Under the pieces are notes generated by a model. It was given only the letters and a program-made list of their open reading frames with translations, did no database searches and had not been told where the DNA came from. A DNA stretch of 64,000 nt from positions 19,784 through 83,783 of the forward strand of contig CAYRXY010000002.1 in the NCBI GenBank assembly GCA_964428495.1, given 5' to 3'. This document shows positions 44,163 through 61,697 of the stretch, in pieces. The DNA is from an uncultured archaeon (GTDB lineage: Archaea > Aenigmatarchaeota > Aenigmatarchaeia > GW2011-AR5 > JAHLMP01). How positions within the stretch are numbered: the stretch's first letter is position 1; each line of letters opens with the position of its first letter. The position numbers and the translations under genes were made by a program.

Positions 44163-45350
44163 ATGAGTAAAAAGCTTAAAGCAAAGATATTTTTGAAAGA
44201 TGACAAGATCCTTGCTGTAGACGAGGCTAGCATTCAAGTATTTTATAGGAGCCACTATGGAATTTTAAAGGGAAGTTTAGAGCTGGATCCAGTTGAAGCT
44301 CTTTACCTAGTGAATATGAGAAAGATACCGTGTTTAGAGGATGGAAAACTGCTCACATTCAAAGATCTTCTCTACAAATTTTCAAATAGAGAAAAACTAT
44401 TTGTAAGGTATAATGTATTTAGGGATTGGAGAGAACGTGGATTATATATTCAACTTCCGAATCAGATAGAGTTGAAACACTTCGGCGATTCTCCTGTTGT
44501 AAATTATCCATCAAAGGAGATAAACTTTCCAATTTTAAAAACAAAATTATTTTTTGACCCAGATAATATGATATCGTTTATATTCGATCTACCTGCTGCC
44601 CGTAAATTATTTGAAGATTATTGGATAGGTCAACTTGGCGTATATAAGCAACACACAAGAGATAAGATACTTAAATTAGATATTTTTGAGACATTATTTC
44701 TAGCTAGGCTTGGATATGAAGTTAATAACATGAAGACAAAAAGAAAGATAGGTTTTGATTCCCTAATCAAATTGGCAAAAAAGAAGGATCCATCGATTAC
44801 AGCACTTTACGATGTCTATGAGGATTGGAGAATGAGAGGTTATGTCGTGAAGACTGGTTTTAAGTTTGGGTCTCACTTCAGAATTTATTTTCCCGGTGCT
44901 TCGCCGATAAAATCTAAGTCCAAGTGGATACACTCAAAACATGTTCTTCAGGTATTCCCGAAGGATAAGAAACTAAAAATGAATGAATGGGCAAGATCGG
45001 TTAGAGTTGCTCATGGAGTTCGGAAGACATTCATAATGGCAATACCTAAAATGAGTGAATCTGATTATGAAAAAATCAAGCCCGATTTTGTTGCGTATCA
45101 TAGAAAAAGAGATGATGTAGAAAAGCCGAATAAAGATAATCCAAGATTCATAATGGTTGCAATTTCTGAAGATGATGAAATTGATGGAAAAAAATCAGCA
45201 TCATTTTTAAGAATTGCTAATGAACTCGGGTTAAGCCTAATAATCGCAATTTCTGATCGAGAAACTGCTGTAACCTATTATATGGCAAAGCTGATAAACC
45301 TACCGGGCTCTAGAAATAAATACTATGAAATTGAATGGTTTCAACCTTAG
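44163..45350 (+). CDS. endA: tRNA-splicing endonuclease, long three-unit form
   Basis: Catalytic unit YDVYEDWRMRGYVVKTGFKFGSHFRIYFPG..HSKHVLQV..AHGVRKTF (Tyr/His/Lys). Extra N-terminal unit with YNVFRDWRERGLYI and an extra C-terminal unit. Confidence 0.9.
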   Translation: MSKKLKAKIFLKDDKILAVDEASIQVFYRSHYGILKGSLELDPVEALYLVNMRKIPCLEDGKLLTFKDLLYKFSNREKLFVRYNVFRDWRERGLYIQLPNQIELKHFGDSPVVNYPSKEINFPILKTKLFFDPDNMISFIFDLPAARKLFEDYWIGQLGVYKQHTRDKILKLDIFETLFLARLGYEVNNMKTKRKIGFDSLIKLAKKKDPSITALYDVYEDWRMRGYVVKTGFKFGSHFRIYFPGASPIKSKSKWIHSKHVLQVFPKDKKLKMNEWARSVRVAHGVRKTFIMAIPKMSESDYEKIKPDFVAYHRKRDDVEKPNKDNPRFIMVAISEDDEIDGKKSASFLRIANELGLSLIIAISDRETAVTYYMAKLINLPGSRNKYYEIEWFQP

Positions 45351-60468: not shown

Positions 60469-60588
60469 GGTTGACGACCAAAGCGGGCGGGGTACGCCGG
60501 TTCCCATTCCGAACACCGAAGCTAAGCCGCCCAGCGATCTCGTGAGTACTGCGCCATCTGGCGTGGAAAAGCGAGGACGTCGTCAACC
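60469..60588 (+). rRNA. rrf: 5S ribosomal RNA
   Basis: 120 nt. Helix I GGTTGACGAC/GTCGTCAACC. Conserved CCCATTCCGAACACCGAAGCTAAGC and GAGTACTG. About 60% GC against an AT-rich background. Confidence 0.95.
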
Positions 60589-61206
60589 GCTTTTCATCCA
60601 TTCGTTCTCCCATTTTTTGATTTCATCTTCTGAAAGTATTTTTATTTTCGGTTTCTTTTTTTCTCCATACTTTGGTCTAAGAAGAAATCCATATACAACA
60701 CCAGTGCCTAGCCCTGCAAGATGACCTAGATGAGCAACATTATCAGAACCGAAAATACCGATGAAATCTAATAATGCCCATATAACTAACGCAACCAACA
60801 TAGGCATTGGAATTCCCATTACCCATACCACCAGTCTTGGTCTAAGAATTCCAAGAGTTCCGAGAATACCGAATATAGCTCCAGATGCACCGATTATCGA
60901 TGAATAAAACAATAATCCAACAAGTCCAGATGCAATTCCTGACGCAAAATAAATCATTAGAAATCTCTTGCTTCCTATTACACTTTCTAGAATAATTCCA
61001 AAGAGTAGTAATGCAAACATATTGTAAAATATATGGCTCAGCGAATTCAAGCTGTGAACGAACATATAAGTAATTAAGCTCCAAGGAGCATTCAAGATAT
61101 TCTTAGAGGAAAGTGCTAAATAATTTATAGTTTGGGGAAATACCAGCTCTAAAACATAGACAAAAATGCATAATAAAAAGATAGATATAGTCGCTCTATA
61201 TTTCAT
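60583..61206 (-). CDS. rhomboid-family intramembrane serine protease
   Basis: GASGAIFGILG (catalytic Ser) and AHLGHLAG (catalytic His). Six TMs. Confidence 0.9.
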   Translation of the reverse strand: MKYRATISIFLLCIFVYVLELVFPQTINYLALSSKNILNAPWSLITYMFVHSLNSLSHIFYNMFALLLFGIILESVIGSKRFLMIYFASGIASGLVGLLFYSSIIGASGAIFGILGTLGILRPRLVVWVMGIPMPMLVALVIWALLDFIGIFGSDNVAHLGHLAGLGTGVVYGFLLRPKYGEKKKPKIKILSEDEIKKWENEWMKSG

Positions 61207-61334
61207 TTCTTTTTTTTCACCTTCTTTTCCTGAATTAAAAAACTGCCAATATCGTAAATCAGATCAACAAAACCGCAAATTAGCTTAGCAAAATCATTGT
61301 CCCAGTTTATTTCATACTTATACTTCTTACCCAT
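61203..61334 (-). CDS. candidate 43-aa ORF coupled to the rhomboid gene
   Basis: Not in the track. MGKKYKYEINWDNDFAKLICGFVDLIYDIGSFLIQEKKVKKKK. Its TGA overlaps the rhomboid ATG (ATGA). Weak. Confidence 0.25.
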   Translation of the reverse strand: MGKKYKYEINWDNDFAKLICGFVDLIYDIGSFLIQEKKVKKKK

Positions 61335-61409
61335 ATACTTTATTTTGAAGGATTCAGAATAAATAAAAAACTTTTAATTTGTAGAGAATTATTATTTAAA
61401 CTATCGTTT

Positions 61410-61484
61410 GCCTCGGTGGTGTAGTCCGGTCTAGCATACAGCCCTGTCGAGGCTGTGACCCGGGTTCAAATCCCGGCCGAGGCG
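61410..61484 (+). tRNA. tRNA-Asp (anticodon GUC)
   Basis: Acceptor GCCTCGG/CCGAGGC, anticodon stem CAGCC/GGCTG with loop CTGTCGA, T-arm CCGGG TTCAAAT CCCGG. Confidence 0.93.
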
Positions 61485-61517
61485 TGACCGAAAACATTTA
61501 GTTTCCAAACACATTTT

Positions 61518-61640
61518 GGGCCCGTAGCTCAGTCTGGACAACACAGCATTTCGATACAACCTTTTTGAAAGGTTGTGTTGGGATAATAGAGCGCCGGCCT
61601 TTTAAGCCGAGTGTCGCGGGTTCGAATCCCGTCGGGCCCA
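61518..61640 (+). tRNA. tRNA-Lys (anticodon UUU) interrupted by a roughly 49-nt intron in the D-loop
   Basis: Acceptor GGGCCCG/CGGGCCC. D-stem GCTC (61527-30)/GAGC (61589-92) separated by 58 nt. Anticodon loop CTTTTAA, T-arm GCGGG TTCGAAT CCCGT. Intron about 61538-61586. Confidence 0.8.
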
Positions 61641-61697
61641 TCAAATTCTTAAAATTATTTAAGCTTTGCTACGCAATCTAATCAACAGGTGTAATTT

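Follow-up and report, generated by a model that had tools for sequence, protein, structure and literature searches.

Introns in the D-loop are a catalogued class of tRNA introns (PMC4090602, PMC3241643, PMC5829648), position 20/21 belongs to the recognised non-canonical intron positions (PMC4090602), and tRNAscan-SE 2.0 counts 673 non-canonical introns in 217 archaeal genomes. Pre-tRNA-Thr2(UGU) of Aeropyrum pernix carries a bulge-helix-bulge (BHB) intron in the D-loop that is matured in vivo and cut in vitro by an (alpha-beta)2 splicing endonuclease (EndA) bearing a specificity loop; cleavage of BHB introns at this place is enabled by such loops, and the loop-less enzyme of A. fulgidus hardly cuts the D-loop intron (PMC3241643). 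Pre-tRNA-Glu(UUC) of Methanopyrus kandleri has an intron at 20b/21 with a relaxed HBh' motif, together with a second, canonical intron (PMC5829648). ARMAN-2 (Ca. Micrarchaeum acidiphilum) possesses the epsilon2 three-unit type of EndA (PMC3239211, PMC3488258, PMC12397907; PDB 4FZ2, 9W2K).

The stretch of DNA analysed here, called the window, is a 64-kb segment of contig CAYRXY010000002.1 (GCA_964428495.1) from a member of the Aenigmatarchaeota (DPANN). Its tRNA-Lys(UUU) gene resembles that of A. pernix tRNA-Thr2 in that a BHB intron interrupts the D-loop of a tRNA normal in other respects, in a host whose EndA has a specificity loop with the conserved lysine. The two systems differ in the tRNA (tRNA-Lys versus tRNA-Thr), in the lineage (DPANN versus Crenarchaeota) and in the enzyme (epsilon2 with an ASL versus (alpha-beta)2 with a CSL) and, unlike tRNA-Thr2, the intron of the window has a strong competing hairpin. 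The intron lies at nearly the same place of the D-loop as that of M. kandleri tRNA-Glu, adjoining A21, whereas both bulges are found in the window and the intron is the only one of its gene. The three-unit EndA is shared with ARMAN-2, which belongs to another phylum, the closest homologues of the window enzyme being labelled Aenigmatarchaeota. The non-canonical introns featured in the main text on ARMAN-2 are in the T-loop (53/54, 59/60), while that of the window is in the D-loop.

We favour, with a probability of roughly 85%, the reading that the locus is a functional tRNA-Lys(UUU) gene with an intron, which the epsilon2 EndA would excise from the transcript at a near-canonical BHB; transcription, cleavage and ligation are all predicted steps. 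The intron is an Aenigmatarchaeota addition to the established class of D-loop introns, nothing categorically new, and leaves the understanding of archaeal tRNA splicing unchanged. It adds an example from this phylum to the link between loop-bearing endonucleases of broad specificity and introns outside the anticodon loop.

The interrupted tRNA-Lys(UUU) gene

The gene is organised as follows:

61518 to 61640, + strand: pre-tRNA-Lys(UUU) gene, 123 nt, CCA not encoded, assigned by base-by-base cloverleaf pairing and by ARAGORN on the spliced form
61518 to 61537, + strand: 5' exon, Sprinzl positions 1-19 including 17a
61538 to 61586, + strand: intron of 49 nt, boundaries placed by BHB geometry and by the restored D-loop AGUCUGGUA
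61587 to 61640, + strand: 3' exon, positions 20-73
61518-24 with 61633-39, + strand: acceptor stem, 7 bp, pairs verified base by base
61527-30 (GCTC) with 61589-92 (GAGC), + strand: D-stem, pairs verified base by base
61594-98 with 61606-10, + strand: anticodon stem, first pair C27.A43, loop CTTTTAA with anticodon TTT at 61601-61603
61616-20 with 61628-32, + strand: T-arm, checked base by base

An earlier sequence-only reading had recognised all cloverleaf elements with D-stem halves 58 nt apart, and a C27-A43 mismatch in the anticodon stem; the base-by-base check bears out both statements. It had also proposed that removal of 61538-61586 restores a normal D-loop, and indeed ARAGORN identifies the resulting 74-nt sequence, with D-loop AGUCUGGUA, as tRNA-Lys(ttt). 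Nucleotides U8, A14, G15, G18, G19, A21, U33, C48, G53, T54, T55, C56, A58, C61 and A73 are all present. The cloverleaf formed after splicing, the invariant nucleotides and the anticodon UUU are thus those of a tRNA-Lys(UUU), C27.A43 being the sole exception. The intron position, given before as about 20/21, is right as a count of gene nucleotides; in Sprinzl numbering it is 19/20 (G19/U20). G+C content is 66% in the exons and 37% in the intron, a contrast commonly shown by the tRNA introns of archaea with AT-rich genomes.

The unspliced gene escapes standard finders. ARAGORN in default mode calls no tRNA at 61518-61640, and the Rfam tRNA model aligns only the 3' two-thirds of the gene at 28.9 bits, just below the gathering threshold of 29. 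With introns allowed (-i), ARAGORN reports a tRNA-Ile(aat) with a 32-nt anticodon-loop intron at 61517-61642. In this model the D-stem is reduced to one pair, the extra arm is very long and the real anticodon arm falls into the variable region; the call is an artefact, because ARAGORN permits introns in the anticodon loop only. That the insert was created by assembly is excluded, since two further assemblies carry the locus, identical in one (L041) and homologous in another from a third sample (L045). It is therefore hardly credible that the gene is either a tRNA-Ile(AAU) or a product of misassembly. Since the finders miss it, the genome would seem to lack tRNA-Lys(UUU). Apparent gaps of this kind recur in DPANN genome bins, for which incomplete tRNA sets have been noted (PMC5829648), and it is in annotation that the case has its practical value.

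Two other roles of the insert were considered and rejected. Neither the C box RUGAUGA nor the D box CUGA of a C/D-box guide RNA, of the kind encoded in the Haloferax tRNA-Trp intron, is present in 61538-61586, and a self-splicing intron is ruled out by the size of 49 nt.

The neighbourhood contains two other RNA genes on the same strand, the three lying within 1.2 kb (60470-61640):

60470 to 60588, + strand: 5S rRNA
61409 to 61485, + strand: tRNA-Asp(GUC), 32 nt upstream of tRNA-Lys

The short gap and common strand suggest that tRNA-Asp and tRNA-Lys may be co-transcribed. A mechanically called ORF for a 207-aa rhomboid protein (60583-61206, minus strand) shares 6 nt with the 3' end of the 5S gene; the overlap disappears in L041 because the gene is called shorter there (160 aa). 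The five remaining tRNA genes of the window (Ser-GCU, Leu-GAG, Tyr-GUA, Gly-GCC and Asp-GUC) are uninterrupted, and a permissive Rfam scan of the 64 kb gave no further tRNA fragments. Disruption, at one gene in six across the 64 kb, is therefore far below the 56% of tRNA genes given for ARMAN-2 (PMC3239211).

Bulge-helix-bulge motif and competing hairpin

In a strict archaeal BHB, a 4-bp helix lies between two bulges of 3 nt each, which are on opposite strands (PMC3239211). A motif of this 3-4-3 type spans both exon-intron junctions of the tRNA-Lys gene. It was returned by a strict BHB finder (5' exon of 20 nt, intron of 49 nt, H = GTCT/GGAT, h' of 9 bp, h = D-stem), and each base pair was confirmed individually:

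61527 to 61530 (GCUC) with 61589-61592 (GAGC), + strand: outer helix h, which is the D-stem, in the same layout in six of seven same-position homologues
61532 to 61535 (exon GUCU, D-loop nt 15-17a) with 61581-61584 (intron GGAU), + strand: central helix H, 4 bp, showing covariation in homologues
61536 to 61538, + strand: 5' bulge GGA, predicted cut G61537/A61538
61539 to 61547 (CAACACAGC) with 61572-61580 (GUUGUGUUG), + strand: inner helix h', 9 bp with one G-U pair
61585 to 61587, + strand: 3' bulge AAU, predicted cut A61586/U61587
61572 to 61584, + strand: 3' strands of the inner (61572-80) and central (61581-84) helices, a segment also taken by the competing hairpin

The GGA bulge, the GUCU:GGAU helix and the AAU bulge reproduce the 3-4-3 arrangement. 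The inner helix is flush with the 5' bulge, while the 4-bp D-stem is parted from the 3' bulge by A14 (61531) and A21 (61588), which stay unpaired between h and H. In mature tRNA, A21 packs against the U8-A14 pair, so that continuous stacking from the D-stem into the BHB is plausible; if A14 and A21 stack, the motif has the flanking helices of a BHB, and otherwise it is slightly relaxed. The A14/A21 gap, on the 3' side, is the only departure from a textbook BHB, and the motif is near-canonical overall.

The sequence-only reading had seen no canonical BHB and had proposed a BHL-like geometry. This view has to be abandoned: the 3-4-3 BHB exists, and its cuts fall at the very boundaries which that reading had chosen. 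The pairing CAACAC/GTGTTG that it mentioned as an alternative corresponds to the inner helix. Its description of the 3' junction is fair, considering the A14/A21 gap, while the 5' junction, which it put in a loop, is in a proper 3-nt bulge. Relaxed BHL, hBH or HBh' motifs have one bulge missing or looped; here both 3-nt bulges can form, and the 5' bulge is absent in the hairpin conformer only.

In the crystal structure of ARMAN-2 EndA with RNA, the nucleophile is the 2'-OH of bulge nucleotide 2 and its target the phosphate of nucleotide 3 (PMC12397907), so that cleavage falls between these two. This rule leads to the cuts G61537/A61538 and A61586/U61587, which are the boundaries that restore the D-loop AGUCUGGUA and yield the mature 74-nt tRNA-Lys. 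As a control, the same rule yields 37/38 for the canonical intron of a related tRNA-Lys gene (L047). In the primary transcript, the 49-nt intron would thus separate G19 from U20 in the D-loop, and the exon-intron junctions would fold as the BHB, with the D-stem outside, the exon GUCU/intron GGAU helix in the centre, the GGA and AAU bulges on opposite strands and the 9-bp helix inside. The genome's own epsilon2 EndA, as a dimer, would cut both bulges between nucleotides 2 and 3, and an RtcB-type ligase would join the halves into the 74-nt tRNA.

The likelihood of a BHB arising by accident was estimated from 100,000 shuffles of the 49-nt insert, searched for a BHB with an inner helix of at least 3 bp at 63 nearby boundary combinations. 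Some BHB appeared at any of these combinations in 5,066 of the 100,000 shuffled inserts; among these, 174 had it at the exact boundaries and 11 had an inner helix of at least 9 bp, giving a chance origin of about 1e-4 for a motif such as that of the window.

The same intron can fold in a second way:

61548-64 with 61568-84, + strand: competing hairpin of 17 bp, loop UUG, with four G-U pairs, the predicted minimum free energy (MFE) element

The extent and loop of this hairpin had been described correctly, its G-U pairs being four rather than the six first counted. The hairpin and the BHB are mutually exclusive because 61572-84 is the 3' strand of both. The whole gene folds with -54.3 kcal/mol (MFE; z = -4.4 against shuffles), versus -51.4 kcal/mol when constrained to form the BHB. 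In the 37 C ensemble of the naked transcript, the hairpin pair C61552-G61580 has a probability of 0.99, and the BHB helices 0.005 (H) and 0.011 (h'); at 70 C the latter rise to 0.09 (H) and 0.24 (h'). By the nearest-neighbour model, which leaves protein binding and tertiary contacts aside, the substrate conformer would be a minority species, which is the chief reservation about the BHB reading. The BHB was overlooked earlier because the 17-bp hairpin shares its 3' strand and dominates the predicted fold. The way out of the hairpin is likely that the BHB is a minor conformer captured by the enzyme, or one stabilised by the tRNA body.

The hairpin conformer itself could instead be the substrate, as a relaxed BHL/HBh'-like structure with the 3' site in an AAUA bulge that parts the 17-bp hairpin from the D-stem and the 5' site in an open loop, cut by an EndA of broad specificity. 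The predominance of the hairpin in the predicted ensemble, the position of the 3' site 2 nt past the helix end and the cleavage in vitro of relaxed hBH motifs by epsilon2 EndA (PMC3239211) agree with such a substrate. However, it leaves the 5' cut unpositioned, since G61537/A61538 lies 10 nt before the base of the hairpin and no helix-bulge adjoins it, whereas the BHB conformer fixes both cuts exactly, restores a canonical D-loop and has the low chance of accidental origin given above. We regard cleavage of the hairpin conformer as decidedly unlikely, and more so in view of the introns at the same position in other lineages, which are plain BHBs and mostly have no competing hairpin.

With the BHB retained as substrate, the hairpin might be a built-in conformational gate that withholds 61572-84, where the 3' strands of the BHB lie, and makes maturation depend on refolding, triggered by temperature, by an RNA chaperone or helicase, or by capture by EndA. 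If so, splicing of what is presumably the only tRNA-Lys(UUU) would be rate-limiting or regulated. This proposal is speculative and we hold it to be improbable. As most introns at the same position in other lineages are without such a competitor, a gate would be a lineage-specific addition.

The splicing endonuclease encoded in the window

The window codes for an EndA of the three-unit type:

44163 to 45350, + strand: three-unit (epsilon2-type) EndA, 395 aa, with Pfam PF02778 (N-terminal domain) and two stretches of PF01974 (catalytic domain)

Its presence had been reported in the sequence-only reading and is established by homology over the full length to the ARMAN-2 enzyme, residues 10-395 aligning to 8-387 of 4FZ2_A (PDB 4FZ2/9W2K) with E = 3.9e-103. 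The catalytic residues Y242/H257/K288 correspond to Y236/H251/K282 of ARMAN-2, and Y161-K162 to Y160-K161 of its specificity loop (ASL), a pair required for activity. A single full-length polypeptide of about 390 aa homologous to ARMAN-2 EndA, with the triad and the loop Tyr-Lys kept, identifies the epsilon2 type. In vitro, ARMAN-2 EndA cuts strict and relaxed BHBs, including hBH, and it is for this enzyme only that the homodimer and broad specificity are shown experimentally (PMC3239211). The EndA of the window is, from its sequence, the presumed enzyme excising the tRNA-Lys intron. The link drawn earlier between intron and enzyme is reasonable; its relevant point is the position of the intron in the tRNA body and not a relaxed motif.

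The best 120 matches to the window EndA consist of full-length homologues of the three-unit type (about 380-440 aa; P0002-P0120), which come mostly from metagenome-assembled genomes (MAGs) labelled Aenigmatarchaeota and Micrarchaeota, with one Marsarchaeota. The account of 2018 knew the three-unit type only from ARMAN-1/-2 and Mia14 (PMC5829648). The epsilon2 type is therefore far wider in DPANN than stated there.

Introns in tRNA-Lys of other archaea and at the Dph2 locus

Species-representative genomes were surveyed with a degenerate exon pattern for inserts of 20-50 nt in the tRNA-Lys D-arm, a restrictive scan that matched 40 loci (L001-L040). One of these, L015:714-783 on a contig of Methanobrevibacter RUG823, is a partial tandem duplication and not an intron: the first 25 nt of tRNA-Lys are duplicated (GGGCCCGTAGCTCAGTCTGGCAGAG), followed by ATCA and by the gene again. 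The remaining 39 are D-arm introns with about eight cut positions:

after gene nt 15: 7 loci, including Aenigmatarchaeota (CUU genes)
after gene nt 16: 1 locus
after gene nt 17: 11 loci, mostly Micrarchaeota
after gene nt 19: 2 loci
after gene nt 20: 7 loci, in Micrarchaeia (L011, L012), Woesearchaeota (L021, L028), a Nanoarchaeota MAG (L031) and Methanosarcinales-labelled MAGs (L024, L035)
after gene nt 21: 3 loci
after gene nt 22: 1 locus
after gene nt 23: 7 loci, in Nitrososphaeria and Thermoprotei

Introns in the D-arm of tRNA-Lys are widespread, with a cut position that is largely lineage-specific. The rarity attributed earlier to introns at the position of the window was overstated, considering these 39 introns, seven of them at the same position, and the catalogued class of D-loop introns. 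Each locus was scored by the best BHB among the excisions that restore a D-arm, a procedure that leans towards finding BHBs because the best candidate is chosen; with it, the central helix is paired at 4/4 positions in 33 of the 39 loci and at 3/4 in the other six. Another intron, in the T-loop or the anticodon arm, is present in many of the tRNA-Lys genes with a D-arm intron.

All seven same-position introns are cut exactly where the window intron is, after gene nucleotide 20. Six share its complete layout, with the D-stem, an A, the 4-bp helix formed by D-loop nt 15-17a, the GGA bulge and a helix on the 5' side, and the helix, 4-bp helix, 3-nt bulge, A21 and D-stem on the 3' side; L031 differs by a GGC bulge and an unformed D-stem. 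The introns, 24-49 nt long, are unrelated in sequence to that of the window. The central helix co-varies with the exon D-loop (GUCU/GGAU, GCUC/GAGC, GCUC/GGGC, GCCU/GGGC, GCCU/GGGU), and the inner helix of the window and its homologues has several Watson-Crick pair types at every position. The predicted probability of the BHB is at least 0.9 in five of the seven homologues (up to 0.99), 0.80 in L031 and 0.30 in L012, versus 0.015 in the window.

Two assemblies give a closer comparison. In L041 (GCA_021160745.1, labelled Aenigmarchaeota), an independent assembly, the tRNA region is identical and the gene order is the same. L045, from another sequencing run, codes for a Dph2 that is 63% identical, and its contig begins inside a homologous intron whose 3' half (...AAAGGTTGCGTTGGGATAA|TAGAGC) has the 3' junction of the window and one T-to-C change, matching position 61576. 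Because the L045 sequence begins inside the intron, this change is no discriminator between BHB and hairpin. The homologous intron with the same 3' junction indicates that the interrupted gene is conserved across substantial divergence. Pair 27:43 is a regular C-G in L045, versus C.A in the window; the mismatch is therefore specific to the lineage of the window. Two metagenome pattern scans for further close relatives sharing the exons found none.

The mismatch could be taken as a sign that the gene is a pseudogene, inactivated by the 49-nt insertion and decaying while another gene supplies tRNA-Lys(UUU), and the prediction of the BHB as a minor conformer would fit this. However, non-standard 27:43 pairs are found in 16 matched tRNA-Lys genes, counting that of the window and its duplicate L041, although in two or three of them a second intron close by, in the anticodon arm, may distort the pair. 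Given their recurrence, C27.A43 is no pseudogene sign by itself. No invariant position is lost and every other stem is intact; the BHB carried by the insert is precise and statistically unlikely, and the interrupted gene with its intron is kept in a relative as distant as L045. DPANN genomes are also small and usually have single tRNA copies, which counts against a second supplier. A decaying gene is thus very improbable, and we retain the functional, spliced tRNA-Lys(UUU). The types U.C, A.C, U.U and C.A recur at 27:43 in DPANN tRNA-Lys (L001, L005, L008, L017, L027, L040 and others), U27.C43 being present in almost all UUU tRNA-Lys genes of Micrarchaeota.

In several Aenigmatarchaeota relatives, tRNA-Lys lies just upstream of the Dph2 gene. 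In the group of the window a GNAT gene lies between the two, and in L045 also Ham1; a protein search with the product of the adjacent GNAT gene matched only a fragment of itself. The tRNA-Lys genes at this locus are interrupted at different positions:

window 61518-61640 and L045:1-76: tRNA-Lys(UUU), intron in the D-loop at 19/20
L046:7903-7989: tRNA-Lys with anticodon CUU, 13-nt intron at about 30/31
L047:1844-1953 (L048 identical): tRNA-Lys with anticodon CUU, canonical intron at 37/38
L049:7878-7973 and L050:3162-3261 (L051 identical): tRNA-Lys with anticodon CUU, T-loop intron at about 59/60

The four intron positions next to Dph2 suggest intron turnover at one locus, or gene replacement. 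They may be the record of an active turnover or transposition of introns in DPANN, as proposed for Thermoproteales.
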